DNA of 64,000 bases from Patescibacteria group bacterium (GTDB lineage: Bacteria; Patescibacteriota; Patescibacteriia; Patescibacteriales; UBA12075), in contig JAKJDO010000001.1 in the NCBI GenBank assembly GCA_022705905.1, positions 28,692 to 92,691 on the forward strand, written 5' to 3'. The translations under genes and the position numbers were made by a program. Under the pieces are notes generated by a model. The model was not told the origin of the DNA. It did not search any database and was given only the letters and a program-made list of their open reading frames with translations. The first letter of the stretch is position 1; each line of letters starts with the position of its first letter. Below are positions 4,794 to 64,000 of the stretch, piece by piece.

Positions 4794-5174
4794 TTAGGCG
4801 CCGCTAAGCACGTTCATAGTCGTACTCACGATTATTTGAACTATAGCATAGGCTGAAATAATTATCACGAGTCCGATTAATCCGGCAATAATTGTTTTTT
4901 TGGCATCAGCAATTTTATCTTCATTGCCGCCAGCCACCATCCATTTAAAACCGCCCAGTAAAACTACAACTACGGCGATAATGCCCAAGAAAGTCATCAA
5001 ATACTTAACGGTGTTAACTGCTGCCGCTCGGGGATCACTGACTGAATTAGGCAGGCCTAAACTGCCTGCTTCATTCAATCCTAGATCGGCTTGGGCTTGA
5101 ACAGCTACCGCTAAAGCAGGAAAAATTATTAAAGCTAATGCGAGAGCTAAAAATAAATTAATTTTTTTGATCAT
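4794..5174 (-). CDS. VirB2/TrbC-like pilin paralog 7.
   Basis: Conserved core FLGIIAVVVVLLGGFKWMVAGGNEDKIADAKKTIIAGLIGLVIIISAYAIV. A G-rich RBS (gggaagggggtgagtc) lies just before the ATG. Confidence 0.6.
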   Translation of the reverse strand: MIKKINLFLALALALIIFPALAVAVQAQADLGLNEAGSLGLPNSVSDPRAAAVNTVKYLMTFLGIIAVVVVLLGGFKWMVAGGNEDKIADAKKTIIAGLIGLVIIISAYAIVQIIVSTTMNVLSGA

Positions 5175-5460
5175 GACTCACCCCCTTCCCGAATTTCTTC
5201 TGCTTGAAAAGAGACTTTTGGCATTTTAAAACAGAAAAAATTATTACTTATTTAGTTATCAACATTAATAATATTTTAACACTTTTTTTGTCAAAAAACA
5301 AATAATAGTGGTAAAATATAGCTGAATGGAAAAAATCTGCGGCTTCCGGCTAGGTTTTGCCTCGCGCCAAGCGAAGGAGTCGGTAGAATAAAGAAACTAT
5401 AGGCGGATAATCCAGCTGCTTCCTGTTTTTTTCTTTAATTTTTTACTATCTTATTATTTT

Positions 5461-7101: not shown

Positions 7102-8506
7102 CAACAACAAAATTTTGTCTTCCTTGAATATTTACCGGCTATTCTTCTGGATTTTCCTGTCTCTTTTAACCGTCTTACTCCACTCCAAACATTATATTGA
7201 TATTGACGAAGGACATGTTTTAGACGGAGCTTGGAATTTACTTAACGGTAAAAAACTATATTTTGATTTTTTTGAGTTTACCCCTCCTGGCGCTTATTAT
7301 TTAGTGCTTTGGTTATGGCAAATATTCGGCGTTAATTATTTAGTAGCTAAAATCGCGTCTTTAGCCGCGCTACTTCTAGCCGCGCTTGGTATTTATAAAA
7401 TTTGGTCGGCTGTAAGCCGCTATTTTAACATCAGCCGAGATTCTGTCTCTATATATCTAAGCATTTTTATTTTTATAATTTCCACCACCCACCTACCGAC
7501 TATCAGTTACCATACCTTCAATCTCGCTTTTACTGTCTGGGCGGTTTATTTTTTTATAAAAGCGCTCTCGATCCAGCCAAATAAAAATATTATTTTTTTT
7601 TCCGGATTGCTAACTGGCGCAGCTGCTCTATTTATGCAAAACAAGGGCGGTGCTCTGTTTTTAACCTTATTCTTATTTACCCTTTTTTTATTAATTAAAG
7701 AAAGAAAAAAAATATGGCTGCAATCATTGCTAATTTTATCAGTTGCGACGACACTGCCGATTATAACCCTGGCGGCTTTCTGGCCAGTTGGTTTGCTTTT
7801 TAAAAATTTAATCGCATTCCCGATATTTAACTACACCAAAGTGGCAATGGTTCCTTTTTATCTACTCTTTTTCTTTATTATTGTCTGGACGGGTGTTATT
7901 TGGCTGCTTAGAAAAAAAACCGCCACCGCCATACAATTTCTTTTTTTCTGGCAATTTATTTTGTTGTTTTCTATTTATTCTTTGGCCGACCATGCGCATC
8001 TATTGCTAGCTATATTCCCACTACTGGCGCTACTACCCGCTGTCCTTAATGAAATCAAAACGTCAATTTACAAAAATTATTTTTTTATCCTGACGGTGGT
8101 AACTATTTTTATCATTGTCTATCCCGCTCTTGTTTTTCTTAACAATTTTAAAAATTTGCCAACTGCAAAAGATTATAAATTTTTAGATTATATTGCCGCT
8201 AACTGCGACAAAACAGAATATTTATACGCCGGGCCGTTTATGTGCGGAATTTATTTTGAAACTCGAAAAATAAACCCAACGCCTTACGGCTGGCTTATTA
8301 CCAACCACCACACCGACGACCAATTTACCGACGCTAAAGAAAAATTAGAAATAAACACTCCAGCTTGCGCAATTTTAAATTACCAATTAGTCAAAAAATA
8401 TGGCTATAACATTGACAATCCGGTAGACAATTTTATTAAAGAGAACTATTATTTAGCTTATACCAGCAATGATGTAATGGTTTATAAAAAAAACCAACCA
8501 CAATAA
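7073..8506 (+). CDS. ArnT/PMT-family (GT83/GT39-like) GT-C membrane glycosyltransferase.
   Basis: A DE-type first-loop motif (DIDEGHVLDGAWNLL..PPGAYY) is followed by multiple TM helices. The ORF track starts it at 7022, overlapping the upstream gene. Internal Met codons at 7055 and 7073 are more likely starts, which implies translational coupling. Confidence 0.5.
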   Translation: MLKITTPINSNNKILSSLNIYRLFFWIFLSLLTVLLHSKHYIDIDEGHVLDGAWNLLNGKKLYFDFFEFTPPGAYYLVLWLWQIFGVNYLVAKIASLAALLLAALGIYKIWSAVSRYFNISRDSVSIYLSIFIFIISTTHLPTISYHTFNLAFTVWAVYFFIKALSIQPNKNIIFFSGLLTGAAALFMQNKGGALFLTLFLFTLFLLIKERKKIWLQSLLILSVATTLPIITLAAFWPVGLLFKNLIAFPIFNYTKVAMVPFYLLFFFIIVWTGVIWLLRKKTATAIQFLFFWQFILLFSIYSLADHAHLLLAIFPLLALLPAVLNEIKTSIYKNYFFILTVVTIFIIVYPALVFLNNFKNLPTAKDYKFLDYIAANCDKTEYLYAGPFMCGIYFETRKINPTPYGWLITNHHTDDQFTDAKEKLEINTPACAILNYQLVKKYGYNIDNPVDNFIKENYYLAYTSNDVMVYKKNQPQ

Positions 8507-9273: not shown

Positions 9274-10020
9274 ATGAAAGTCGATTTCTGCCTGCCGATT
9301 TATAATGAAGAAAAAATTTTAGAAAAAAATGTTTTAAAATTACTTAACTATTGCTCGGCGCAACAATTTAATTTTGATTGGAAAATTACTATCGTATCTA
9401 ACGGCTCTTCAGACAGCTCTTCAACTATTGGCGAAAAATTAAAAGCGGAAAATTCTGATAAAATTAATTTTATCAATATAAAAACCCCCGGCAGGGGTCA
9501 GGCCCTTAAAACGTATTGGCTAAAAAGTCCGGCTGATATAGTTGTTTACATGGATATTGATTTGGCCGTATCCTTGGACGAAATTCCGAGGCTAATCCAG
9601 CCTATTATTAATAAAACTTTTGATTTGCTTGTCGGCTCGCGCTTAATGCCGGAGTCAAAAATTAAAAGATCTTTTATTAGGGAGCTTAGCTCGCAAAGTT
9701 ACAATTTTTTATCCCGCGTTATTTTAAAACACAATTTTTCCGATATGCAATGCGGTTTTAAAGCTGTCAAAGCTGAAGTTTTTAAAAAAATCGCGCCGTA
9801 TATAAAAGACACTAAGTGGTTTTTTGATACCGAACTAATAATTTTTACAAAAATATTCGGTTATAAAATCAAAGAAATTCCGGTAAACTGGTCGGAAAAC
9901 AGATATGATGAGAGGGAAAGCAAGGTAAATATGTTCAAAGACAGTTTTAAATTCTTATATAATTTAATCGCGCTAAAAATAAGGCTGGCGAATATCAAAA
10001 AGAAAAATCTTGCCAATTAG
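9274..10020 (+). CDS. Second GT2-family glycosyltransferase.
   Basis: DFCLPIYNEEKIL...YMDIDLAV (DxD-type) motifs. The gene is adjacent to and in the same orientation as the first GT2. Confidence 0.65.
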   Translation: MKVDFCLPIYNEEKILEKNVLKLLNYCSAQQFNFDWKITIVSNGSSDSSSTIGEKLKAENSDKINFINIKTPGRGQALKTYWLKSPADIVVYMDIDLAVSLDEIPRLIQPIINKTFDLLVGSRLMPESKIKRSFIRELSSQSYNFLSRVILKHNFSDMQCGFKAVKAEVFKKIAPYIKDTKWFFDTELIIFTKIFGYKIKEIPVNWSENRYDERESKVNMFKDSFKFLYNLIALKIRLANIKKKNLAN

Positions 10021-14410: not shown

Positions 14411-14989
14411 ATGCCTTTAATACCTACGGTCATTGAAAAATCGGGCCAAGTAGAACGGGCCTATGACATATACTCTCGCCTTCTGAAAGATCGCATTATC
14501 TTTTTAGGTGAGCCGATTGATGACCATGTTGCCAATATTGTCATCGCTCAATTTTTATTTTTAGATGCGGAGAACAAGAACAAAGATATAAAATTCTATA
14601 TCAATACGCCGGGCGGATCGGTTTCTGCTGGCATGGCTATCTACGATACGATGCAATATGTCAAAAGCGATGTTTGTACAATTTGCGTCGGCATGGCCGC
14701 CTCAATGGGTGCAGTGCTTTTAGCCGCTGGTGCGCCAGGTAAACGTTTTGCCCTACCCAATAGCGAAATCTTAATTCATCAAGTTATGGGTGGAGCTGAG
14801 GGCCAGGCCACTGACGTTAAAATACGAGCTGAACATATCTTAAAAATCAAAGATAAATTAAATAAAATACTAGCCAAACATACAGGACAAAAAATTACAG
14901 ATATTGAAAAAGACACTGATCGCGACCGTTTTATGTCCCCGGAAGAAGCTAAAAAATATGGAATTATTGATAAAATAATTGTTAAATAA
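14411..14989 (+). CDS. clpP: ATP-dependent Clp protease proteolytic subunit.
   Basis: [20 protein letters not shown] with a Ser-His-Asp triad context. Confidence 0.9.
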
Positions 14990-34980: not shown

Positions 34981-35008
34981 AAAAATCACCGAACAGGTGA
35001 TTTTTTGT
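34981..35008. terminator. Bidirectional terminator between rpsT and holA: aaaaatcacc-gaacag-gtgatttttt.
   Basis: Perfect stem flanked by an A-run and a T-run. Confidence 0.6.
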
Positions 35009-35020
35009 TTTATCTAAAAG

Positions 35021-36007
35021 CTATATTTTTGCAATCATTAAACTCAAGGCCGCTTTAAAATCTCCTTGTCCACTTTTTATTTTTCTATCGACCTCCAATA
35101 AATCGCTAAAAATCTTCTTTAGTAAATCCGAAGAAAAACCCCCAACCTGACCAGAGCATTTTTGCACTACGAAGGGATGAAAGTGCAATTGGCTAGTGAT
35201 CTTGCGCTGACTCATGCCTGCGTCTATAGCCTCTTTAACTTGCAGCAGTATTTTAAACTGGCGAATGATCATTGTTAGTAAATATTGTTCAGCCACACCA
35301 GCCTCCATTTCTTGCTCTAGCAATTTTATCGCTTGCGCTTTATTTTTATTACCAATAGCATCGGATAACGCAAAAATATTTTCATCAATTTTACCACGGC
35401 TTAAGGCCTCGACATCTTCCTCACTAATTACTGCTTCACTTTCTGGCAAAAGTTGCGCTTTCTTAAAATTTATTAGCTTTTCAATTTCATTATTAAGTTG
35501 CCATAAATCACTGCCAAACATGCTGGCTAGATTTAACACTGCTTGTGGCTTAACTTTAGCTTCACGAGCTGTAAATTCTTTTTTTATCCAAACTGCCGTT
35601 TCCGTGTTCGATAATTTTTTAAAATTCTGAGCATACTTCTGCTCGCTCAAAAATTTAAATAATTTATTTTTTTCCAATTTAGCGCCACTGGTTTCGTCCC
35701 AAAAAATAATTATATTATCATCTGCCTTGTCTTTACTCTTTGCTGTTTTTTTGAAATAGTCAAAAACTTTTTCTAGTATTTTCTCGCTCTTATTGCTAAA
35801 AATATTTTCTACGACAATCATGCGCTTGCGCGCAAAAAGCGAACGCGCGCCGATTGCCTCGCTTAATCCTTCGATCATTAAACTTTCACCAGCCAAACTA
35901 ACAATACCATTGCCAGTAGGATCAACTTCGCGGATGAACTTATCTTTCAATTCTTTTAGTTTTTGGCGGCTACGAAATGTATCTTCGCCGTATAAAAATA
36001 TAATCAT
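35021..36007 (-). CDS. holA: DNA polymerase III delta subunit.
   Basis: N-terminal IIFLYGEDTF..., AAA-like fold, and a length of 328 aa. Confidence 0.7.
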   Translation of the reverse strand: MIIFLYGEDTFRSRQKLKELKDKFIREVDPTGNGIVSLAGESLMIEGLSEAIGARSLFARKRMIVVENIFSNKSEKILEKVFDYFKKTAKSKDKADDNIIIFWDETSGAKLEKNKLFKFLSEQKYAQNFKKLSNTETAVWIKKEFTAREAKVKPQAVLNLASMFGSDLWQLNNEIEKLINFKKAQLLPESEAVISEEDVEALSRGKIDENIFALSDAIGNKNKAQAIKLLEQEMEAGVAEQYLLTMIIRQFKILLQVKEAIDAGMSQRKITSQLHFHPFVVQKCSGQVGGFSSDLLKKIFSDLLEVDRKIKSGQGDFKAALSLMIAKI

Positions 36008-36016
36008 ACCTGTTCG

Positions 36017-36057
36017 TCTCCTCTCCTTGTTTGAAGGGGGAGGTTGGGGTGGAGTTT
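36017..36057. repeat. G-rich palindromic repeat: ctcctctccttg-tttg-aagggggaggttggggtggag followed by tttt. It belongs to the same family as 40476-40535, 61143-61182 and 63968-63991.
   Basis: Recurring G-tract arm (GAGGG-Y-GGGG-TG-AGG) paired with a C-rich arm. Here it lies in the holA 5' UTR. Confidence 0.5.
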
Positions 36058-36314
36058 TAAAAACTGTAACAAAATGGCTTAAATTACGTATTATTAAGTA
36101 GAACTAATTTAATAATATGATAAATAGAAGATTACCGCAAATTAAACCAATCGTCAACCACGGCTCTGCTTGTGGCACTGGCTACATGTCAGACTTTTAT
36201 CGATCTGGCTGGTTTAAATTTGTATTGTAATCTTTTTTTCATATACATTCTCCAAATTTAGCCTTACCGGGTCGGTAAGGCTAAATTTTATTAACCAAAA
36301 AACTAGAAAGGAGA

Positions 36315-36875
36315 ATGTTTATGAAGCAAAACATCCCGTTTCTCAAAGGAGAAAAAATCAATCTTTGTCCTTTAAATGAAGAATTGCATTTAGATAATAC
36401 ATTACAGTGGCTAAACGACGAAGACGTTATCAAATGGTTATTGATGATTTTCCCTCTATCAGAAACTCAAGAAAAAGATTGGTTTGCCAAACGTTTAATC
36501 TTAAGCAACCCACCGTCTGATATACTTTTAGCTATTGTCTTAAAAGACGGAAAACACGTCGGCAATATTGGCCTGCATAAGATCGACTGGATTTCACGGC
36601 GCGCTGAATTAGGAATTGTTATCGGCGATAAAGAACAATGGGGTAAAGGCCTTGCTACTGAAGCTGAGAGCCTGCTTATAGATTTTGCCTGGAAAAAACT
36701 TAACCTCTGTAAAATTACTGCCCATGTCTTCTCCGACAATATTGCTAGCCTAAAAGCCTTACAAAAAAATGGCGCCGTCGAGGAAGCCAGGCTCAAAGAT
36801 CATATCTGGAAAAATGGAAAGTTTAACGATCTTATTGCTCTGGCGATTTTCAACAACCAAGAGTCGCCTAAATAA
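36315..36875 (+). CDS. GNAT-family N-acetyltransferase (RimJ/RimL-like).
   Basis: GNIGLHKIDWISRRAELGIVIGDKEQWGKGLATEA. Confidence 0.7.
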   Translation: MFMKQNIPFLKGEKINLCPLNEELHLDNTLQWLNDEDVIKWLLMIFPLSETQEKDWFAKRLILSNPPSDILLAIVLKDGKHVGNIGLHKIDWISRRAELGIVIGDKEQWGKGLATEAESLLIDFAWKKLNLCKITAHVFSDNIASLKALQKNGAVEEARLKDHIWKNGKFNDLIALAIFNNQESPK

Positions 36876-36876
36876 A

Positions 36877-36915
36877 GGCAAAGTTCACTCTTTACCGACC
36901 CGAACTTTGCTTTTT
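36877..36915. terminator. Bidirectional terminator: gcaaagttc...gaactttgc followed by ttttt.
   Basis: 9-bp stem plus T-run, between convergent genes. Confidence 0.55.
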
Positions 36916-36919
36916 AAAT

Positions 36920-38242
36920 TTATTTCAATTTTAGAACTTCTTGCTTGAATAACTTACCGCGCTCTTTATAGTTTTTAAACATACCAAAGCTCGCGCAGGC
37001 CGGTGACATTAAAACAACGTCTCCTAGTTTAGCATTCTTACGGGCAGTAGCAACTGCTTCTTTCATGCTGTTCACAACTTTAATTTTTTTCTTATCAAAC
37101 CTAACTTTTTCAACTTCTTTTTTCATTCTTAGCGTTGCATCACCTTTAAATAAAACTAAAAAATTAACTTTCTTATTAATAACTTTTGCTAGCTCCTTAA
37201 AATTAGAATTCTTTTCTGCTCCACCGGCAAGTAATATAATCGGCTGTGAAAAAGATTTTAAAGCAATAATCGTTGATTCTGGCGTAGTGGCGAAACTATC
37301 GTTATAGTACGCGACACCTTTGACATTACCAACCAGCTCAATGCGATGTTCCAGCCCTGAAAAATTTTTAACAGATTTAACAATAACTTTTTCTTTTATA
37401 CCAACAATTTTAGCAACCTCGACAGCTGCAGCAATATTTTCTTTATTGTGTTCTCCAACCAATTTACTTTTTAAATTAGATTTTTCAAAGAATTTAATTT
37501 TACTAGCTAACTTTATATTGTGAATTTTCTTCTTCAACTTGGAATTAGCAATAAAATATTCAGTTTTTTTCTGATATTTAGCTATATTTAATTTTGCCTG
37601 CCAGTAAATTTTAGCGTTTTTATGATAGTTCGGATTGTTAGGATCGGCCGGCGCTAAATGCTCATTAAAAAAGTTTGTCATCACTGCAATTTTTGGACTG
37701 ATTGTCATATCTTCCAGCTGAAAACTGGAAAGCTCAAAAACAATCCAATCGTTTTTTCTCACTTTCTCAAAAAAATCAAAGGGCGCTACGCCAATATTGC
37801 CCGCCAACCAAACGCGTTTTTTACCTTTCTTTAAAATATGGTAAATTAATGATGAAGTTGTGCCCTTACCTTTCGTACCAGTCACACCAATTATATTTTT
37901 AGTCGGACTTAGTTCTATAAAAAACTCAATCGGATTTATAATTTTTACGTTCATTTTTTTTACCTCAACCAATCCTTTATCAAACAATGGCCAGCCAGGT
38001 GAACGAAACAACAAATCAAATCCGCTTAAATTTTTGTTCGCGTCTTTACCTAATTTCCAATGTATATTTTTTCTAGTTCGCAAAACACTAAATTTTTTAC
38101 CCAACTCTTTCTCGTTCTTAAAATCACAAATAGTAATTTGGCAATCTATTTTTTTTCTAAGAAAAAATTTAATTAAAGCTAGATTTTCTATGCCTAGCCC
38201 CAGAAAAGCTATATTCTTATTTTTTAATGTTGACAAATTCAT
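36920..38242 (-). CDS. murD: UDP-N-acetylmuramoyl-L-alanine--D-glutamate ligase.
   Basis: N-terminal Rossmann (IAFLGLG) and the Mur ligase P-loop GVTGTKGKGTT. Confidence 0.8.
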   Translation of the reverse strand: MNLSTLKNKNIAFLGLGIENLALIKFFLRKKIDCQITICDFKNEKELGKKFSVLRTRKNIHWKLGKDANKNLSGFDLLFRSPGWPLFDKGLVEVKKMNVKIINPIEFFIELSPTKNIIGVTGTKGKGTTSSLIYHILKKGKKRVWLAGNIGVAPFDFFEKVRKNDWIVFELSSFQLEDMTISPKIAVMTNFFNEHLAPADPNNPNYHKNAKIYWQAKLNIAKYQKKTEYFIANSKLKKKIHNIKLASKIKFFEKSNLKSKLVGEHNKENIAAAVEVAKIVGIKEKVIVKSVKNFSGLEHRIELVGNVKGVAYYNDSFATTPESTIIALKSFSQPIILLAGGAEKNSNFKELAKVINKKVNFLVLFKGDATLRMKKEVEKVRFDKKKIKVVNSMKEAVATARKNAKLGDVVLMSPACASFGMFKNYKERGKLFKQEVLKLK

Positions 38243-38290
38243 ATTTTATAATAAAATCTTAACAATACAATAAATAAGGAGGAGTAAAAA

Positions 38291-38530
38291 TTGAAAAACA
38301 TAAGATACGAAGTAGTGGGCATACTAATAACTGGTGAAATTAGAGGAGGCGAGGTCTGTCCTCCGAGCATGTGGTATCATGTTAAAACTGGAAGAGAAAT
38401 TCTGGAAGCGACTATCTTTACCAAACAAGGACCTATTGAAATTGAAGTCTGTTGCAAAGGCTGGGCAGCAAAAACTCCAGAAGAGTTCTCAAAAGTTGAA
38501 CCCCTAACTAAATATTATATGTTCCAATAA
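38291..38530 (+). CDS. Hypothetical 79-aa protein (TTG start) with four Cys.
   Basis: Strong RBS (ataaggaggagtaaaaa TTG). No family recognised. Confidence 0.3.
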   Translation: MKNIRYEVVGILITGEIRGGEVCPPSMWYHVKTGREILEATIFTKQGPIEIEVCCKGWAAKTPEEFSKVEPLTKYYMFQ

Positions 38531-38582
38531 AACACCGGTCTTTATCCATCGTTGGCAGGCACTCTCAAAGCTCCTGCCTTTC

Positions 38583-41423
38583 TTATTTTAGCTCTCCCCA
38601 ACTATCTCCCGTATTAGCATCAACTACCACCGGCACTTTTAACTTTAACACTTCTTCCATTATCTTTTTAATCTTCTCAGACAATTCCTGTACTTTAGCC
38701 GATTTTATTTCAAAAAGCAATTCGTCGTGTACTTGTAAAATCATTTTTACATCTTCCGTTTTATATTCTTTTTTTATCATCTTCTCAATTTCAATCATGG
38801 CGATCTTTATCATATCCGCAGCTGTGCCTTGCAGCGGTGTGTTGATAGCCATGCGCTCGGCCGCTTTTTTAACCATAACTACTGACGAATTTATTTCCGG
38901 TAAATAACGCCGGCGGCCAAATAGCGTTTCCGAATAACCATTCTCCCGCGCTTCATCCACTACTTCTTCCACCCATTTCTTTATGCCTTGATAGGCTTTA
39001 AAATAATTGGCAATAAATTCACGCGCTCTGTCATAAGAAATGTCAGCCGTCTGCGACAAACCGTGCGGACCTTGACCGTATAAAATACCGAAATTAGTTG
39101 CCTTAGCTTCACGGCGCATTTCTTTCGTAACCTCCTCTAATTTAACGCCGTTAATAGCGGCGGCAGTGGCTATATGAATATCTTCCCCTTTTTTAAAAGC
39201 CTCGATCATTTTCTTATCGCCTGACATATGCGCCGCTAACCGTAACTCAATCTGTGAATAATCTAAACTTAATAATTTACATCCCGAGCAAGCAACAAAA
39301 GCCTTCCGAATTTCATTGCCCAATTCGGTGCGCACCGGAATATTCTGCAAATTCGGTTCGGTTGAAGATAAACGACCAGTCGCCGTAATCGTTTGATTAA
39401 AGCTGGTATGCAAGCGACCATCTTTTTTGCTAATTAAATCCGGCAAGGCATCGGCATAAGTTGAACTTAATTTTGCTAACTCGCGATATTCTTGAACTAG
39501 CCTAATAATCGGATGGGCGTCTTTTAATTTATCTAATTCATCAGCAGCGGTTGAAAATCCGGTTTTATTCTTCCCGATATTTAAAGACGAAATTTCTAAT
39601 TTTTCAAACAAAATTTCGCGTAACTGCTGAGTTGACTTAATGTTAAACTCTATGCCAGCTAATTTATATATTTTTTTCTCTAATGTCTTTATTCTTTTGT
39701 CTATTTCACGGCTTAATTCTACCAAAACATTTTTGTCGAGTAACACGCCTTTGTCTTCCATATCGGCCAGCACCGTCACAAGCGGCATTTCAATTTCATA
39801 AAATAATTTTTCCATTTTCTGTTCGCGCAATTGTTTGCTTAATGCATTTACGAGCCGCCTAGTAAAATCAGCGTCTTCACAGGAATACAAGCTTAACTTC
39901 TCAGCTTCAACTTCGTTAAAATTTTTCTTATCGCGCCCCTTGCCGAGCAAATCTTCTTTTGATATTTTTTCAAAACCTAATTCCGTAAACGTCACGGCGT
40001 CTAAATTATGCTGGCGTGTACCCGGATTTAACAAATAAGAAGCGATCATCGTATCAAAAGCAACGTTAGCTACATTAATGCCGCTGCTTTTCATTACTCG
40101 ATAATCAAACTTAATATTATGACCGTATTTCTCAATCTTGGGATTCTCAAAAATCGACCGTAAATTTTCTAGCCAAGGATGAATTTTATTCTCTTCTTTT
40201 TTGTTAAAATTGAAAAGAGTGTTTTGCTTGTCATCCTGAGCGCTAGCGAAGGATCTCGTTTTTTTCACCACGCTTACAAAATACGCCTCGCCGTCTTTCC
40301 AGGAAAAACTAATACCTAATAAATTTGCAATCAGGGGATCAAAAGAATCAGTTTCTGTGTCAAAAACAAATCTGCTTTGTTTTTTAAGTTTGCTTAAAAA
40401 ATCTAAAAACTTTTTCTCGTCATCGACTAAAATATATTTAAATTCTTTTTTATTCCTCTCAAATTTATCAAAAATCTCTCCTCCTTTCTCTCGCCCCCTC
40501 CCTTTTTGAAAGGGAGGGGCGGGGAGGGTTTTAGCGCTGCCTGAAAACAAACTATGAACGCGCGGCAAAAGCGACTTAAACTCTAAATCGCTAAACAATT
40601 TTACAACTTCTTCTTGCTTGATATTGCCAAACCGAGCATCGTCTAAATTAAACTTAATTTTTACATCACGTTTAATCGTTGCTAAACTTTTTGACATCAA
40701 CGCATCTTTTTTATGCTCTTTCAATAATTCTCTAATTCTATCTTTGATTTTAGCTGAATTAATATTTTTATAAACTCCATCTAAGGTTTTAAATTCAATT
40801 AATAATTCACTCGCGGTTTTCTCGCCAATGCCTTTTACGCCCGGAATATTATCGCTCGGATCGCCGCGCAAAGCCTTATAATCAATCATCTGCTCCGGTT
40901 TTAAACTAAAGCGCGCTTTCACTGTTCTAGCATCATACAAAATACTGTCAGACAAACCACGGCTCATCGTATAAACTTTAGTATTATCATCAACTAACTG
41001 CAAAGTGTCCATATCACCAGTTACAATAATCTTTTCAATATCACCATCAACTCTGGCGGTAATCGTGCCGATTAAATCGTCAGCTTCAAAGCCAGCTTCA
41101 GCAAAAACAGGGATGGCAAAAGCTTCTGCTAATTCTTTAACACGCGGAATTTGCGTATATAAATCATCCGGCGCTTTAACGCGCGTCGCTTTATAATCTT
41201 TATATTCAATATGCCGGAAAGTCGGCCCAGCTTTATCTAAAGTTAAAACAACATAATCAGGCCTAAACTCTTTTAACGCTTTAAGTAAAACAGTCGCAAA
41301 ACCATAAACAGCATTAACCATCTCCCCTTTTTTAGTGGTCATAGTTGGCGGTAAAGCGTGAAAACTGCGATGTATCAGCGCATTTCCGTCAATTATTATC
41401 ATTTTTTCCTTTTTGCTGGTCAT
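38583..41423 (-). CDS. polA: DNA polymerase I (5'-3' exonuclease, 3'-5' exo-like and polymerase domains).
   Basis: N-terminal IIIDGNALIHRSFHA, exo motif FDTETDS, and polymerase motifs (DYSQIELR, QVHDELLFE). Confidence 0.9.
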   Translation of the reverse strand: MTSKKEKMIIIDGNALIHRSFHALPPTMTTKKGEMVNAVYGFATVLLKALKEFRPDYVVLTLDKAGPTFRHIEYKDYKATRVKAPDDLYTQIPRVKELAEAFAIPVFAEAGFEADDLIGTITARVDGDIEKIIVTGDMDTLQLVDDNTKVYTMSRGLSDSILYDARTVKARFSLKPEQMIDYKALRGDPSDNIPGVKGIGEKTASELLIEFKTLDGVYKNINSAKIKDRIRELLKEHKKDALMSKSLATIKRDVKIKFNLDDARFGNIKQEEVVKLFSDLEFKSLLPRVHSLFSGSAKTLPAPPFQKGRGREKGGEIFDKFERNKKEFKYILVDDEKKFLDFLSKLKKQSRFVFDTETDSFDPLIANLLGISFSWKDGEAYFVSVVKKTRSFASAQDDKQNTLFNFNKKEENKIHPWLENLRSIFENPKIEKYGHNIKFDYRVMKSSGINVANVAFDTMIASYLLNPGTRQHNLDAVTFTELGFEKISKEDLLGKGRDKKNFNEVEAEKLSLYSCEDADFTRRLVNALSKQLREQKMEKLFYEIEMPLVTVLADMEDKGVLLDKNVLVELSREIDKRIKTLEKKIYKLAGIEFNIKSTQQLREILFEKLEISSLNIGKNKTGFSTAADELDKLKDAHPIIRLVQEYRELAKLSSTYADALPDLISKKDGRLHTSFNQTITATGRLSSTEPNLQNIPVRTELGNEIRKAFVACSGCKLLSLDYSQIELRLAAHMSGDKKMIEAFKKGEDIHIATAAAINGVKLEEVTKEMRREAKATNFGILYGQGPHGLSQTADISYDRAREFIANYFKAYQGIKKWVEEVVDEARENGYSETLFGRRRYLPEINSSVVMVKKAAERMAINTPLQGTAADMIKIAMIEIEKMIKKEYKTEDVKMILQVHDELLFEIKSAKVQELSEKIKKIMEEVLKLKVPVVVDANTGDSWGELK
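40230..40258. repeat. Solo arm of the GTCATYCTGAGCG...CGAAGRATCTCG repeat family, in-frame inside polA (encodes ..RSFASAQDDK..).
   Basis: Same 29-mer family as 41528-41577, 51801-51866 and 62016-62135. Confidence 0.5.
40476..40535. repeat. G/C-rich palindromic repeat inside polA: cgccccctcccttt-ttga-aagggaggggcggggaggg followed by tttt. It encodes ..LPAPPFQKGRGREKGGE..
   Basis: Hairpin-forming, compositionally aberrant, and the same family as the holA-UTR and yidD-yidC elements. Confidence 0.5.
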
Positions 41424-41437
41424 TGTTTTTTTCTTTT

Positions 41438-41462
41438 GTCATTCCCGCGCAGGCGGAAATCC
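41438..41462. repeat. Hairpin repeat GTCATTCCCGCG-cag-GCGGAAATCC (family of three copies: 41438, 51161, 56478).
   Basis: Near-identical 24-mers with an 8-bp stem attcccgc/gcgggaat, each just upstream of a gene start (polA here). Confidence 0.5.
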
Positions 41463-41527
41463 ATTTCCTTATTCATTCTACTCCTATTACACCACATAAA
41501 AACCCTTAAAACAAGCCCATCCTCTTT

Positions 41528-41577
41528 GTCATTCTGAGCGTCTGCCTTGCCTGGCAGGCGGGTTAGCGAAGAATTTC
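41528..41577. repeat. Solo copy of the GTCATTCTGAGCG..GCGAAGAATTTC repeat with an internal palindrome gccttgcctggcaggc.
   Basis: The family appears in four places in the window. Confidence 0.45.
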
Positions 41578-41688
41578 GTCTCCTTGCCTTTTACCTAACC
41601 AGGGTATAAAATTAAAGTGTAAAAAGCCAGATTATACCTATTATTTTTTATTGTTTTACTCGCTAGTTTTAAACAAAAAAACAACAAA

Positions 41689-42214
41689 TTCGCATATAAC
41701 TAGTTAAGTGGAATTTTTTTGCTCGCCTATAAGCGCAACATTTATTAAAACCAGATAAACAATTAACTACACGGAACTTCACGACATCAGAATCATCAAA
41801 CAGGACGAAAGAGGTATAATTTATGATTGTGGCAAATCCAGTTTTATTTCAAGAAAGAAAGGAACTATAAGTGCCAATCATAAACATGAAGATCCCGAAA
41901 TTGTTTACCTGGTTAAAGGAGAAGTGGAATTAACAATTGGTGATGAAACCCAAATTGTAAAAGCTCCAATCATGTTCAAGACTGATTCTAATGTTTATCA
42001 CAAATTGGTTGCGCTTACTGATATAGAACTTGTTATTGATAGAGACGGCGAGTAAAAAACTCAAGCCACGCTGCGCTCTCGTTCCGCTTCGCTTCAATCG
42101 GATCACTTAACAAGGGATATATGGTTCGGGGCTCGGCTCGCCCCTCACCCAAATTTTTCTTCCACTTCGTTCCAGAAAAACTTCGTATATACCTGATGTT
42201 ATGACGCCATCGCT
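41689..42214 (+). mobile_element. Candidate small insertion element of about 525 bp. It is bounded by TTCGCATATAACTAGTTA (left) and GTTATGACGCCATCGCT (right). The same two ends are directly juxtaposed at 29064-29094, which looks like an empty site. The cargo is a frameshifted cupin gene.
   Basis: An exact 18-mer is shared between 29064-29081 and 41689-41706. The 13-mer tgaYgccatcgct is shared between 29082-29094 and 42202-42214. Confidence 0.4.
41823..42055 (+). pseudogene. Cupin-domain gene interrupted by a frameshift. MIVANPVLFQERKEL* is followed in the +1 frame by ..SANHKHEDPEIVYLVKGEVELTIGDETQIV..DRDGE.
   Basis: RBS plus ATG, then a stop after 15 codons. The downstream frame has the cupin-like H.H..E...G pattern. 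The frame break is at an A-rich run. Confidence 0.4.
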
Positions 42215-51794: not shown

Positions 51795-51800
51795 CCTACT

Positions 51801-51866
51801 GTCATCCTGAACGAAGTGAAGGATCTCGCAATTAAAAACAAGATTCTTCGCTTTGCTCAGAATGAC
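51801..51866. repeat. MITE-like inverted-repeat element. Arm gtcatcctgaacgaagtgaaggatctcg, 12-nt spacer, inverted arm agattcttcgctttgctcagaatgac. It lies between smpB and ssrA.
   Basis: The two arms are imperfect reverse complements and belong to the GTCATYCTGAGCG family. Confidence 0.5.
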
Positions 51867-51874
51867 AAAAATAC

Positions 51875-58414: not shown

Positions 58415-59767
58415 CTAATTGTTGTTATATAAAAGCTGTTTAATAGACTCTATGTCTTGCTTGATGCGCTCGTTGTCGTCCGCTTCTTTCGTAATTTTGT
58501 TAAAGGCATGCATGGCAGTAGTGTGGTCGCGACCGCCAATTTCCTGGCCAATGGTCGGATAAGACGTGTTGGTCTCTTTGCGCATTAAAAACATAATAAT
58601 CTGCCGCGGATAAACCAGCTCTTTTTTACGGCACTTGCCAGTCAAGTCCTTGGTTTCAACATCAAAATATTTAGAAACAGACTCAATAATGTCTTTGCCG
58701 GTAATTGACTTGGTTTTAGTTGAGGTGATGATGCTGCCTAAGACGCTCTTGGAAGAATCAATAGTTGGCTTGGTGTTGTTAAATTCATGAAAAGCAATTA
58801 ACCGGTTCAGCGCCCCCTCCAGCTCGCGAATGTTGCTTTGAATATTGTTGGCAATATAATACAAAATTTCCGGGTCTAAAGAATAATTTTTTTCGCGGCA
58901 TTTAGCTTCTAATATTGCCATTCTGGTTTCAATGTCTGGCTGGGCAATGTCAACAATCATGCCCCACTCAAATCTAGACAACAGCCTTTTTTCTAAAGCT
59001 GGAATGGATTTAGGCGGGCGATCACAAGTCAAAACAATTTGTTTATTAGTTTGGTGAAGTTCGTTAAAAGTATGAAAAAATTCTTCCTGGGTGCCGTCTT
59101 TACCGGCCATAAACTGAATATCGTCTATCAGCAACAAATCAACGTTACGATAAAGGTCTTTGAATTCTTTGGCCTTGCCATTTTTTACTGAATGAATATA
59201 ATCGTTGGTAAAACGTTCACAGGTGATATATAAAATTTTATTGGTTCTTTTTGAAATTTCATGACCCACGGCTTGCAACAGGTGTGTCTTGCCCAGACCC
59301 ACGCCGCCATAAATAAACAAGGGGTTATAAGCATTGCCCGGATTGGCGGCCACTGCCTGGCTGGCGGCGTGCGCCAATTCGTTGCCTTTGCCGACAATAA
59401 AGCTTTCAAAATTATAGCGGGCGTTCAAGCCAAACTGATTAATGGAAACGGGTTCGCTACTCGCTTCTTCTTTTTTTATTTTTATTTTTTTAAGCAAATC
59501 ATCCATCGGGCTGTTTCTTCTGGTTTCAACTTTATAAAATATCTGCTTAACCGTCTTGGTGCTGACACTCTGGATTGCGCCAGAAATTTGCTGATGATAC
59601 TTTTTTTCCAACCAAGCCTTAGTAAAGGTGTTGGGCACACAAATGACAACCTTTTCGTCTTCAAACGAAGAAATAAAAGTGTTTTTAAACCAGGTGGTGA
59701 AATTTGCCTTGGATAAATTAAGTTCTATTTCGCCAAGCACCGCCTGCCAAAGTTGATCGTGATTCAT
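58415..59767 (-). CDS. dnaA: Chromosomal replication initiator DnaA.
   Basis: Walker A GGVGLGKTHLL, sensor motifs, and a C-terminal DNA-binding domain. Confidence 0.9.
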   Translation of the reverse strand: MNHDQLWQAVLGEIELNLSKANFTTWFKNTFISSFEDEKVVICVPNTFTKAWLEKKYHQQISGAIQSVSTKTVKQIFYKVETRRNSPMDDLLKKIKIKKEEASSEPVSINQFGLNARYNFESFIVGKGNELAHAASQAVAANPGNAYNPLFIYGGVGLGKTHLLQAVGHEISKRTNKILYITCERFTNDYIHSVKNGKAKEFKDLYRNVDLLLIDDIQFMAGKDGTQEEFFHTFNELHQTNKQIVLTCDRPPKSIPALEKRLLSRFEWGMIVDIAQPDIETRMAILEAKCREKNYSLDPEILYYIANNIQSNIRELEGALNRLIAFHEFNNTKPTIDSSKSVLGSIITSTKTKSITGKDIIESVSKYFDVETKDLTGKCRKKELVYPRQIIMFLMRKETNTSYPTIGQEIGGRDHTTAMHAFNKITKEADDNERIKQDIESIKQLLYNNN

Positions 59768-60358
59768 AGCCCAATGGTTAATAGTTAATTTAAATTTATT
59801 CTTTTTTAAAAGCGTTTTTAATAGCAGTTGGAATTATACCAGATAATAAAACTTTTAAAAACCCTAATTTTGTTTACAAGTTGTTTATAAACAGTGGAAA
59901 ATAAACATTCCATTTTTATTTTTATAAAGCCGGTTAATTTTTAAAAACTCGTTGGCAACAACCTCTATTTTTATAATTTAATTAAATATATAAAGATAGT
60001 AATAGTAATAATAAGGAGGTGGTTAAAGTTTAATTAATCTTTAATTTGTTTAATAATAGCGGTAAATGGCTATAACAAACTGTTGACAAGCCTGACCGAC
60101 TTTTGTGGATTGGGTTTAATAAAATGTGCTTAACTTCTCGTCTGGTGTTTTTAATACTAATGTTTTACACCCCTTGTACCAAAAAAACAACAGACATCAA
60201 ACAACAAGGCCACAAACAATACCACCACTTAATCACAGATAAGTGCGTCTTAAAAACGTTGACGCTCCATTTTATTTTTTCTAATTGACTAAAAAAAATT
60301 AAAATGTTATGTTAATCAAGAAAATAATATAAAAATAATTTTGTAATAAATTTATTTT
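59768..60358. promoter_or_regulatory. Candidate oriC, or at least the dnaA promoter region: an AT-rich 590-bp spacer between divergent rpmH and dnaA.
   Basis: Conserved rnpA-rpmH/dnaA-dnaN synteny. Only degenerate DnaA boxes are visible (ttataaaca, tgtggattg). Confidence 0.4.
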
Positions 60359-60508
60359 ATGCCTAAAAGAACTTACCAGCCAAATAAGCGTCGGGCTTCG
60401 AAAAAACATGGCTTCCGCAAGCGCATGCAAACCAAGTCTGGCAGAAAAGTTATTAAAGCCCGAAAAAATAGGGGTCGTAAAGTTTTAACCAAGAAGAAAA
60501 TTAAATAA
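60359..60508 (+). CDS. rpmH: 50S ribosomal protein L34.
   Basis: Manual translation [49 protein letters not shown]. The gene is below the ORF-track length cutoff. Confidence 0.8.
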
Positions 60509-60541
60509 ATTTTTAAACTTTGTTTTTTTTGTGGTTAATGT

Positions 60542-60883: not shown

Positions 60884-61140
60884 TGAAAAACAGCTTCGTT
60901 TATCTACCTCGTTATTTTTTGATCACGATAATTAAGTTTTATCAAAAAACGTTATCGTTTGATCACGGCCTGTTTAAACATCTTTTTCCCTATGGATTTT
61001 GTCGTTTTAAACCAACTTGCTCTGAATATGCTATAGCAGCTATTGCTAAGTACGGAGTGATTAGAGGTGGGATAAAGTCTGCTTGGAGAGTTGTGCGCTG
61101 TAATCCGTTTAATAAGGGCGGTTACGATCCATTAAAATAA
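60883..61140 (+). CDS. yidD: Membrane protein insertion efficiency factor YidD.
   Basis: FYQKTLS...[10 protein letters not shown]...[11 protein letters not shown] signature. Confidence 0.8.
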
Positions 61141-61142
61141 TT

Positions 61143-61182
61143 CGCCCTCGCTTTGTTTGGAGGAGAGGGTCGGGGTGAGGTT
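61143..61182. repeat. G-rich repeat copy between yidD and yidC: cgccctcgctttgtttggaggagagggtcggggtgaggtt.
   Basis: Family with 36017, 40476 and 63968. This copy contains the yidC RBS. Confidence 0.45.
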
Positions 61183-61198
61183 AAAATAAATTAAATCA

Positions 61199-61930
61199 AT
61201 GGAACAAGGAATATTTTTTACATTTTTTTATCAGCCGATTTTAAATCTGGTGGTTTTTTTATATAACATTATTCCTGGCCAAGACCTGGGTTTAACAATT
61301 ATTGCCTTAACCATAATTATTAAGGCTGCGTTATTACCATTATCAAAAAGTTCAATTAAATCACAAAAAGCATTACAAGAGTTGCAGCCCAAGATAGATG
61401 AACTAAAGGCTAAGTATAAAGATAAAAAGGAGGAAATGGGCAAGGCCATGCTGGAGATGTATAAGCAGAATAAAATTAACCCGCTCTCTTCTTGCTTGCC
61501 GCTTATTATCCAACTCCCCTTCTTAATCGCCGTTTTTCAAGTTTTTCGCGATGGTTTAGCTAACGGCGCTCTAAATAGCGTTTATTCTTTTATAGATAAA
61601 CCAGAGGTTATAAATCAGGTGGCATTCGGCTTTCTCGATCTGTCAAAAAACCACAATATAGTTTTAGCGGTTTTAGCCGGCGCGGCTCAGTTTTGGCAAT
61701 CAAAAATGATGATGACAAAGCGCCCGGCTGTTAAGATTCCGGAATCAAAGGACGAAGATATGGCCGCGATTATGAATAAGCAGATGTTATATATCTTCCC
61801 ATTGATGACCGTTTGGTTCTCCTACACCTTTCCGGCTGGTCTAGCGCTTTATTGGTTTGTTCTTACACTACTTGGAGTCGCTCAGCAATATTACATTTTT
61901 AAAAGCAAGAAGAAGGACGAAGTAAAGTAA
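61199..61930 (+). CDS. yidC: Membrane protein insertase YidC (short form).
   Basis: 243 aa with 5 TM helices. It follows rpmH-rnpA-yidD in the conserved order. Confidence 0.8.
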   Translation: MEQGIFFTFFYQPILNLVVFLYNIIPGQDLGLTIIALTIIIKAALLPLSKSSIKSQKALQELQPKIDELKAKYKDKKEEMGKAMLEMYKQNKINPLSSCLPLIIQLPFLIAVFQVFRDGLANGALNSVYSFIDKPEVINQVAFGFLDLSKNHNIVLAVLAGAAQFWQSKMMMTKRPAVKIPESKDEDMAAIMNKQMLYIFPLMTVWFSYTFPAGLALYWFVLTLLGVAQQYYIFKSKKKDEVK

Positions 61931-62015: not shown

Positions 62016-62135
62016 ATGTCATCCTGAGGCTGTAGGCCGAAGGATCTCGGGTGTCTTGCAAGTTGTTCGTGTTTGCAAAACAACCAGAGATTCTTCGCTG
62101 CCTGCCTGCCGGCCGGCAGGCGCTCAGAATGACAT
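62016..62135. repeat. MITE-like inverted-repeat element of 120 bp. The arms are atgtcatcctgagg..gccgaaggatctcggg and cagagattcttcgc..gctcagaatgacat, each with an inner palindrome. Its right end overlaps the murI ATG.
   Basis: The arms are reverse complements of each other and belong to the GTCATYCTGAGCG family. The central part contains ttgcaa palindromes. Confidence 0.5.
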
Positions 62136-63217: not shown

Positions 63218-63829
63218 TTATTTTGTTAACTGAAAACTTTTAAATATCTTACTAACATCTTGAAGCGCCACTGATCCTTGTTCTGTTGAATCTTGAACGA
63301 TTACTTTACCTAAAAATATATATTTGTCGTTACTTCCAATTTCAGTATTGCACGGATACATAGCAATTCCAGTTTCCTTCTGTTCCTTTTCACATTCGCT
63401 TACATCTTTTTCATATTCTTCTTTTAATTTTGAATCTATTATATCGATTGCAAAAAGACATTCTTTGTGGGCTGTTTCAAGACAAAATTTAATTCTTTTG
63501 CGGTTAGGGTCATTTAACTCAACATCTAGCATACCTTGATTGTAATCAATTTTTGTTTCAATGAAATAGTTTTTCCAATTATTTGTCAGAGTTATTTGGA
63601 ATCCATATTCCTGATTTGAATATATAGTATTGGCACTGTTTGTAATAGAATTATTATCGTTTTGCTGAATGGGCGTATTGGCAATTTGTTGAGGTGGTTG
63701 TTGCGTTGCTTGTGGAGTGACTACTGCTGGCAGCTGGTTATCTTGCTTTATCGTTGCAAAATATATAGTTGTGCCAAATAAGACAATGCCAACAGCTATT
63801 AAAATTGTAATGATTGTTTTTTGATTCAT
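63218..63829 (-). CDS. Hypothetical secreted or membrane-anchored protein (203 aa) with a Gln/Pro-rich linker and a Cys-containing C-terminal domain.
   Basis: N-terminal TM or signal segment. No family recognised. Confidence 0.4.
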   Translation of the reverse strand: MNQKTIITILIAVGIVLFGTTIYFATIKQDNQLPAVVTPQATQQPPQQIANTPIQQNDNNSITNSANTIYSNQEYGFQITLTNNWKNYFIETKIDYNQGMLDVELNDPNRKRIKFCLETAHKECLFAIDIIDSKLKEEYEKDVSECEKEQKETGIAMYPCNTEIGSNDKYIFLGKVIVQDSTEQGSVALQDVSKIFKSFQLTK

Positions 63830-64000
63830 TTGATTTAAAATATTTAGATTAAAATTATTGTTTATTTCAAGTTATCACGACCTTTGGAAAATTGCCAAAA
63901 AATTAAAATATAAATTGAGAGAGATTTTTGACTATTTCCGATAACTACTTATATACGAACTTTGTTTTAAAACCCTCTCCCCTTCCCGACGATTAAATTT

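Follow-up and report, generated by a model that had tools for sequence, protein, structure and literature searches.

The 64,000-nt stretch of Patescibacteria DNA analysed here (the window) carries three copies of a short G/C-rich repeat, located at the start of holA (site 1, 36017–36057), inside polA (site 2, 40476–40535) and between yidD and yidC (site 3, 61143–61182). All three are real copies, in the broad sense, of the repeat known in Escherichia coli as BoxC, PIT element or triplex motif (TM). Their defining feature, overlooked by the original prediction made from the letters of the window, lies in the two G blocks, the second being a mirror of the first: the G-rich arm exceeds the C-rich arm, and its surplus is a mirror image of the paired part. 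It is this mirrored block that identifies the elements as BoxC/PIT/TM repeats. The explanation that we consider probable, taken as a whole, is that of a known triplex-motif repeat acting as insertion- and deletion-prone DNA, which would be copied by way of a single strand and would have no dedicated role. The sites would accordingly be described as G/C-rich class II intrastrand triplex-motif repeats, DNA modules of 35–40 bp with three blocks.

Copies were sought with a detector of our own, in which 7-nt blocks follow one another on one strand in the order pyrimidine (Y), loop, complementary purine (R), loop and mirror (H), with at most one mismatch per pairing, a first loop of 3–14 nt and a second loop of 1–6 nt. 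This architecture-based search replaced a simple motif search with GAGGGTYGGGGTGAGG (up to 3 mismatches), which was too rigid and returned site 3 and one chance match only. In the window the detector returned sites 1, 2 and 3 and no others; 200 first-order Markov shuffles averaged 0.005 matches and never gave more than 1, so that the three copies are confirmed far above chance; its sensitivity is given by the recovery of 6 of the 8 published E. coli TM sequences tested. Composition singles out the same places: 20-nt intervals with at least 12 G occur at four positions in the window, three of which are sites 1–3, while the fourth (14788–14807) is not an element. The original prediction was right that the repeat family is genuine, that its arms pair and that its composition is anomalous, these being G/C-rich repeats in a genome of 37% GC, the value found for the window; further copies lie in L009, L011 and relatives. 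Rfam covariance models run on the window at the gathering threshold returned tRNAs and a tmRNA only, and no match at the repeat sites.

At each of the three sites the third block is arranged as a purine-motif triplex requires, with G facing G and either A or T facing A. The pairings of site 2 are perfect and its mirror reads GGGAGGGG-C-GGGGAGGG; according to the detector, no pairing at site 1 or 3 contains more than one mismatch, the mirror of site 3 being GAGAGGG-TCG-GGGTGAG, with T facing A. Fold predictions, in which only Watson-Crick and G-U pairs are modelled, give hairpins at sites 1–3. Site 2 is the only strong DNA hairpin of the three (−14.2 kcal/mol, z = −3.0), and the RNA hairpins of sites 1 and 3 rely on G-U pairs.

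The repeat has a long published history. It was discovered in E. coli, then named BoxC in the 1990s (Bergler 1992), PIT in 2000 (Hoyne et al. 2000) and TM or TMECO more recently (Holder et al. 2015, PMC4666352), the last study defining it as a class II purine-motif intrastrand triplex motif with the consensus 5'-CCCTCNCCC N3-6 GGGNGAGGG N3 GGGNGAGGG[GTC-]-3'. E. coli MG1655 holds 23 copies, all intergenic and including CCCTCTCCCTTCCAGGGAGAGGGTCGGGGTGAGGGT, and 262 proteobacterial genomes hold 3610; related G/C-rich motifs are abundant in cyanobacteria, and the E. coli-type motif was not found on phages or plasmids in that study (PMC4666352). In single-stranded form, E. coli members fold back into a hairpin, to the purine strand of which the third block binds through G.G-C and A/T.A-T triplets. 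This triplex is stable in vitro, none was detected in vivo by dimethyl sulphate (DMS) footprinting in E. coli, and TM loci are unusually variable among strains (PMC4666352). Kaplan et al. 2016 (PMC5100583) described these E. coli motifs as switching between G-quadruplex (G4), hairpin and duplex; none of the motifs lies in an open reading frame (ORF), and several form inverted pairs less than 50 bp apart (PMC5100583).

Agreement at the sequence level is found at site 3, which has an 18-nt run, GAGAGGGTCGGGGTGAGG, in common with E. coli TM copies 12 and 20, and of which some 34 nt can be aligned with E. coli copy 3 if 3 mismatches and 2 gaps are allowed. The first block of this site, CCCTCGC, carries a G-versus-A mismatch as do the E. 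coli 'mm' types.

Variation between relatives provides a further line of evidence. Copy 1 (36020–36054, plus strand), defined by the detector and the folds with one mismatch in each pairing, is made of the Y block CCTCTCC (36020–36026), the loop TTGTTTGAAG (36027–36036), the R block GGGGAGG (36037–36043), the loop TTGG (36044–36047) and the H block GGTGGAG (36048–36054), after which comes TTTTAAAA. The site adjoins the start codon of holA (ORF 35021–36007, minus strand), in the spacer that separates this gene from a divergent acetyltransferase gene. In the relative L150, whose PolA is 78% identical, the corresponding spacer aligns with 83% mean column identity and one clean gap of 54 nt, the block missing there being 36008–36061 (plus strand), which carries the copy. 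The filled site reads CAT, ACCTGTTCGTCTCC...GGTGGAGTTTTAAA, AACTGTAAC (with the junctions CAT/ACCTGT...TTTTAAA/), and the empty site reads CAT directly followed by AACTGTAAC; the flanks of the filled site hold an imperfect 6-nt direct repeat, ACCTGT/AACTGT.

A separate observation in the acetyltransferase–holA spacer is a perfect 16-bp palindrome, AAATTTAGCCTTACCG-ACC-CGGTAAGGCTAAATTT, at 36254–36288, which is 100% conserved in L150 though the spacer around it varies and which is a candidate operator or RNA hairpin.

Site 3 shows the same pattern between the co-directional genes yidD (ending at 61140) and yidC (starting at 61199). Copy 3 (61145–61179, plus strand; detector and Table 1 of PMC4666352) comprises the Y block CCCTCGC (61145–61151), the loop TTTGTTTGGAG (61152–61162), the R block GAGAGGG (61163–61169), the loop TCG (61170–61172) and the H block GGGTGAG (61173–61179), followed by G. 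It is flanked on the plus strand by two copies of the direct repeat TTAAAATAA, the left one at 61132–61140, which includes the yidD stop codon, and the right one at 61181–61189, a candidate target-site duplication. An exact 9-nt repeat across a spacer of 36–50 nt is found at 3.6e-4 of window positions, and at 3.3e-3 when all-A/T words are considered. The yidD–yidC spacer measures 58 nt in the window, with a 40-nt element between the TTAAAATAA copies, versus 5–9 nt in relatives, where TTAAAATAA is present as a single copy: in L153 yidD ends in ...TTTAAAATAA and yidC starts 9 nt on, and on the contig of the closest yidC relative (P0122, 82% identical) the gene map gives 5 nt. A different repeat element occupies this junction in L152. 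Because relatives have empty sites at both holA and yidD–yidC, these two copies are read as insertions; they would be lineage-specific additions of 49–54 nt at AT-rich sites.

The surroundings of copy 3 also deserve mention. At 58415–60540 dnaA (minus strand) faces rpmH-rnpA-yidD-yidC (plus strand), and the cumulative GC skew reaches its minimum at 58–60 kb, on account of which the replication origin probably lies inside the window, about 1.3 kb from the copy. The G strand is the plus strand at all three sites, and since sites 1 and 2 lie to the left and site 3 to the right of this dnaA/rpmH region, the copies fall on opposite replication strands; with three copies, we draw nothing from it.

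The polA copy differs from the others in being coding. Copy 2 (40494–40528, plus strand and hence antisense to polA; detector, fold and G4 motif) consists of the Y block CCCCCTCCC (40494–40502), the loop TTTTTGAAA (40503–40511), the R block GGGAGGGG (40512–40519), a single C (40520) and the H block GGGGAGGG (40521–40528), a perfect mirror repeat of R, and is followed by TTTT. Site 2 lies in frame within the 946-aa polA ORF (38583–41423, minus strand) and encodes ...KTLPAPPFQKGRGREKGGE... (...LPAPPFQKGRG...), part of the linker that joins the 5'-3' and the 3'-5' exonuclease domains and that is highly variable across homologues. As the G strand is antisense to the gene, polA mRNA bears the C-rich strand. 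A protein named 'Parcubacteria group bacterium ADurb.Bin316' matches the window PolA at 100% identity, and this PolA is present on many metagenome contigs from anaerobic digesters; a PolA search of genome contigs gave no match above 68% identity.

Among relatives the polA copy is found intact, decayed or absent. In the closest one (L149, PolA 84% identical) the loop is kept (TTTCAAAAAGGGA) and the C-rich blocks have decayed to AT-rich sequence, and the linkers of L150 and L151 contain no element. Intact three-block copies occur at the same linker position and on the same strand in L008 (70% identical) and L168 (80%), with the matched blocks CCCTCCC/GGGAGGG/GGGAGGG and CCCTCTCC/GGAGAGGG/GGGTGAGG, respectively, those of the window being CCCCTCCC/GGGAGGGG/GGGGAGGG. 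In a neighbour-joining tree the copy-less P0005 falls inside the copy-bearing clade, with P0008 at its base, a topology which fits one old insertion followed by decay and loss and, equally well, repeated insertion into a tolerant linker. Two further in-frame PolA copies, one in L102 in the loop before the QVHDEL motif and one in the linker of L136 (Bacteroidales), sit at other positions of the protein, indicating that coding insertions recur. The window copy would have entered the variable linker in an ancestor and would have been tolerated because it is in frame.

Copies outside the window extend the family. Just past the window end, the same-species contig L009 carries an inverted pair (8110–8142 and 8155–8187), and L011, also same-species DNA, has at 2377–2410 a sequence that nearly duplicates site 2 (about 35/39 positions agree by eye) and reads CCCCCTCTC TTTTTCAAA GGGAGGG TCG GGGTGGG TTTT. 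This near-twin is also coding: its translation, ...KTHPDPPFEKERGIK..., falls within a GT2 glycosyltransferase, after the conserved N-terminal strand and ahead of the EIIVVDNGS motif. Copies in the same-species contigs sampled are all identical. In 80 loci around PolA relatives (1.26 Mb, mostly Patescibacteria) the detector found 19 copies versus 0 in shuffles, and most second loops in these copies read TTA or a Y-rich trinucleotide (TCG, TTG, CTG), types that are also listed for E. coli.

At L011 7524–7558 and 14186–14216 we also observed a G/C-rich variant in which a larger hairpin (GGGCGAGGGGCA ... TGCCCCTCGCCC) encloses the block AGAGGGGCTGGGGGTGAAT in its loop; its vocabulary is akin to that of the triplex motif and its layout is different.

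The module is not confined to genomes of this kind. Viral contigs were searched with a 17-mer, GGGAGGGTCGGGGTGRG, drawn from site 3 and from another copy of the species, and this gave 57 stretches spanning 38–74% GC, nearly all of which have CTCCCTCCCC and a short loop just upstream. As this partner had not been part of the search, its presence beside the 17-mer indicates that the module is widespread. A metagenome scan for the site 2 subtype yielded 13 further copies on AT-rich contigs, many in inverted pairs; this pattern scan is not exhaustive, having missed site 2 on JGI contigs that carry it (for example Ga0209717_1000062 and Ga0116156_10003945).

What is observed directly (the architecture, its over-representation, the identity with E. 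coli sequence, the filled and empty sites, the in-frame coding copies and the decay in one relative) is best read as showing copies that behave as small, insertion/deletion-prone repeated DNA and not as expression signals. Mechanistically, they may spread by copying through a structured single-stranded intermediate. They would have no dedicated regulatory role, being tolerated where they landed and occasionally co-opted.

Several observations weigh against this explanation. First, the strict TMECO pattern (9-nt blocks, first loop of 3–6 nt) is matched by none of sites 1–3: blocks here are 7–9 nt and first loops are 9–11 nt and AT-rich, in site 3 CCCTCGC is followed by TTT where the pattern has CCC, and the first loop measures 11 nt, and sites 1 and 2 have GGGGAGG and GGGAGGGG blocks. 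The copies are therefore filed under the broad family. Second, as DNA, sites 1 and 3 give weak hairpins (−4.2 and −5.1 kcal/mol), no better than shuffles, which together with the one mismatch in each means that they may no longer fold. Third, candidates for the target-site duplications of miniature inverted-repeat transposable elements (MITEs) are seen in a perfect 9-nt flanking repeat at site 3 and an imperfect 6-nt one at site 1; yet among the 179 copies from all fetched loci, direct flanking repeats of at least 6 nt accompany 12%, versus 10.6% of control positions, with a small excess of repeats of at least 8 nt (6/179 versus about 1%). Flanking repeats are thus not enriched family-wide, and a transposase-like mechanism is not supported. 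Fourth, the choice between gain here and loss in relatives at sites 1 and 3 appeals to parsimony over few relatives. Fifth, the sole density estimate is 6 copies in about 95 kb of same-species DNA, so that the several tens of copies per genome obtained from it are only an extrapolation. Finally, intact copies at a single PolA position in species about 30% diverged could reflect selection for function.

A bolder reading, which goes further than any other and which we regard as unlikely, would make the triplex-motif repeats a pan-bacterial mobile DNA of about 40 bp, spread by a host or phage mechanism that uses the folded single strand and lands at AT-rich sites, sometimes with a duplication or in frame. 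In this way modules that are almost identical would have reached E. coli, Patescibacteria and Bacteroidales as well as phage-like contigs. If it held, the three-way matched PolA blocks in diverged species would mean that a triplex-capable fold is selected or recognised in vivo.

That the element is itself selected, as an in vivo triplex or a protein-binding site, with an orthologous PolA copy maintained by three-way compensatory change, is in our view improbable. Three species do have intact but differing block triplets at the same linker position and on the same strand, their loops vary while the blocks stay matched, and the second loops TTA, TCG and CTG recur from E. coli to Patescibacteria. 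On the other hand, the copy of the closest relative has decayed and two relatives lack it altogether. Independent insertions of different family members into a tolerant linker would give the same pattern, L102 and L136 providing other insertion points in PolA, and the DMS footprinting in E. coli detected no triplex in vivo (PMC4666352).

Regulation of neighbouring genes by G4/hairpin switches, as Kaplan et al. 2016 proposed for the E. coli motifs, appears improbable as well. G4 formation had been put forward in the original prediction, and a motif search over the window finds the canonical sequence pattern at site 2, where GGGAGGGGCGGGGAGGG (40512–40528), with 1-nt loops, is a textbook motif and the only canonical one (four runs of at least three G, loops of 1–7 nt) in the 64 kb; E. 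coli members show hairpin and G4 signatures in vitro (PMC5100583). Sites 1 and 3, however, have two such runs each instead of four. They do contain at least four GG runs, but two-tetrad motifs number 34 in the window anyway. A G4 would leave unexplained both the mirrored A/T interruptions of the second and third blocks and the constant C-rich partner, the mRNAs of polA and holA carry the C-rich strand, and the gene has been retained in the closest polA relative while its copy decayed. For an E. coli oligonucleotide, nuclear magnetic resonance favoured the triplex over the G4 (PMC4666352).

Selection of the copies as strong ribosome-binding sites, or as hairpins sequestering a Shine-Dalgarno (SD) sequence, for the translational control of holA and yidC is very improbable as a general explanation. 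Its best case is site 1, where the 54-nt block places on the minus strand the only SD-like tract ahead of holA, GGAGAGGAG, at a distance of 10 nt from the ATG. The holA sense strand shows AAGGAGAGGAG 10 nt before the ATG, with an upstream CCUCCCCC tract able to pair with it, and the empty site of L150 has no purine-rich, SD-like tract at the matching place; a similar G tract, GGGAAGGGGGTGAGTC-ATG, occurs at 5171–5191. A ribosome-binding role on this strand, opposite to the G strand, is plausible only at holA and there as a side effect, which would make the tract a by-product of the insertion or a co-option. At yidC, for which the original prediction had assigned this role to site 3, it is doubtful, as 18 nt separate the end of the G tract from the ATG and a spacer of 5–9 nt suffices in relatives. 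The polA and GT2 copies are internal to ORFs, and the motif occurs in all orientations to genes and, in E. coli and on phage-like contigs, irrespective of start codons.

Lastly, intrinsic terminators or attenuators, also suggested originally, are hardly tenable: although TTTT occurs within 10–13 nt of GC-rich stems at sites 1 and 2, RNA folds of the plus strand reach −16 to −31 kcal/mol and several E. coli members lie between convergent genes (PMC5100583), site 1 abuts the holA ATG in a spacer between genes that diverge, site 2 falls within polA and has its T-run on the antisense strand, site 3 separates co-directional genes that lie 5–9 nt apart in relatives, a third block of 9–11 nt intervenes between stem and T-run, which are 9–13 nt apart, a terminator scan of 35000–42000 flagged neither site 1 nor site 2, and neither promoter nor terminator activity is reported for the E. 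coli PIT elements (PMC4666352, which cites Maher and colleagues). The T-run said to follow the copies often is seen at sites 1 and 2 and at the tract at 63968–63991 only.

This last tract had been counted as a fourth copy. It is a lone G-rich sequence, CGTCGGGAAGGGGAGAGGGTTTTAA (63968–63991, minus strand), made of the last codons and stop of a DAGK_cat-family gene whose C-terminus is read on the same-species contig L009, past the window end, as ...IVGKGRGF*. According to the detector, the fold and L009, it has no C-rich partner arm and no mirror block and is not a palindrome. It was rejected as a family member because it fails the three-block detector, and as an element truncated by the window end because L009 holds no C-rich arm beyond and the tract is coding. 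Of the four copies described, and of the pairing between a C-rich and a G-rich arm attributed to each, sites 1–3 remain. The tract at 5171–5191 (minus strand), where GGGAAGGGGGTGAGTC stands directly before an ATG, resembles the G arm of the repeats; having neither Y nor mirror block, it was likewise rejected and is treated here as an ordinary, if very strong and extended, SD tract.

A second, unrelated repeat family shares the window, with the core GCTCAGRATGACA / TGTCATYCTGAGC and 11 matches at up to 2 mismatches versus 1.4 expected. Its positions are 40229–40241, 41527–41539, 51800–51868 and 62017–62134, together with 19198, 33102, 44571 and others, and it occurs in L152 at 9482–9604. Full copies are MITE-like inverted repeats of 65–120 nt; one lies just upstream of the tmRNA gene and another separates yidC from the gene that follows. 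polA contains a half copy that is translated in frame (...RSFASAQDDK...), and it is a copy of this family that occupies the yidD–yidC junction of L152, where the window has the triplex motif.

Two observations concern neighbouring genes. At its right end (63218–63829, minus strand) the window encodes a 203-aa protein with no Pfam match, which is identical residue for residue to the product of L011 10001–10612, in an unrelated context of DUF559 genes and an integrase; given these two unrelated loci, the gene may be duplicated or mobile. Around polA, ORFs of 79–105 aa with a GIY-YIG domain are scattered (L001/L002 407–724 and L002 8506–8745, which in the window correspond to places near 51 kb and 43 kb, on the right of polA). 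One of them is annotated only in some samples, and they are possible homing-endonuclease remnants.

The family is already published, and the present results go modestly beyond the literature, in that the host belongs to the Patescibacteria, that copies lie in frame within essential genes and that filled sites can be set cleanly against empty ones; published surveys placed the repeats between genes and the E. coli-type motif in proteobacteria (PMC4666352, PMC5100583). A new mechanism is not revealed by the finding itself. Its interest is that, some 30 years after BoxC/PIT/TM repeats became known, there is no agreement on what they do or how they spread. In a minimal, AT-rich genome of the candidate phyla radiation the module stands out by composition and close relatives supply filled and empty sites, giving a small, tractable data set on the arrival and decay of such elements. 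The module can remain in frame in an essential gene (PolA) over long evolutionary periods. For annotation, it accounts for the recurrent odd peptides of the 'PPFQKGRG' type and for spurious ORFs in such genomes.

Compared with known systems, BoxC/PIT/TM offers the closest likeness. The order Y, R, mirror R is shared, as are the vocabulary CCCTCNC / GAGAGGG / GGGTGAG, the second loops TCG, TTA and CTG, the 18-nt identity, the 'mm' mismatch, the multi-copy state (3 versus 0.005 in the window, 6 in about 95 kb, 19 versus 0 in relatives), the inverted pairs less than 50 bp apart and the presence or absence between close relatives (filled or empty at sites 1 and 3; intact, decayed or absent in polA). 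The differences lie in the host, here a Patescibacteria genome of about 1 Mb and 37% GC instead of a proteobacterium, in the shorter blocks and longer AT-rich first loops, in the matches on viral-classified contigs, where the E. coli study had none on phages or plasmids, and in the in-frame genic copies (site 2, the GT2 copy of L011 and the polA copies of L102 and L136), whereas those of E. coli are exclusively intergenic.

Other short palindromic families resemble the repeat in behaviour. Rickettsia palindromic elements (RPEs) are 100–150 bp long, AT-rich and lineage-restricted; Ogata et al., in 2000, reportedly described them as short palindromic repeats lying in frame in coding genes, at tolerant positions, that persist through speciation and decay. 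The copies described here share with them, as generally understood, the palindromic form, the in-frame location at structurally tolerant positions and persistence followed by decay, whereas RPEs have no three-block mirror architecture and no sequence relationship to the present repeat. REP/BIME sequences are likewise short extragenic palindromes, multi-copy and often in inverted pairs, but REPs have a 5' GTAG-type tetranucleotide and a link to RAYT genes, neither of which is seen at sites 1–3, and have no third mirror block. The GC clusters of yeast mitochondrial DNA, which are associated with TAG-type target duplications, differ in host and sequence, in having no mirror purine block and in those duplications, which are not seen here; what they have in common with our copies is that both are short G/C-rich palindromes in an AT-rich genome, found at coding or linker sites, polymorphic for insertion and with AT-rich target sites.

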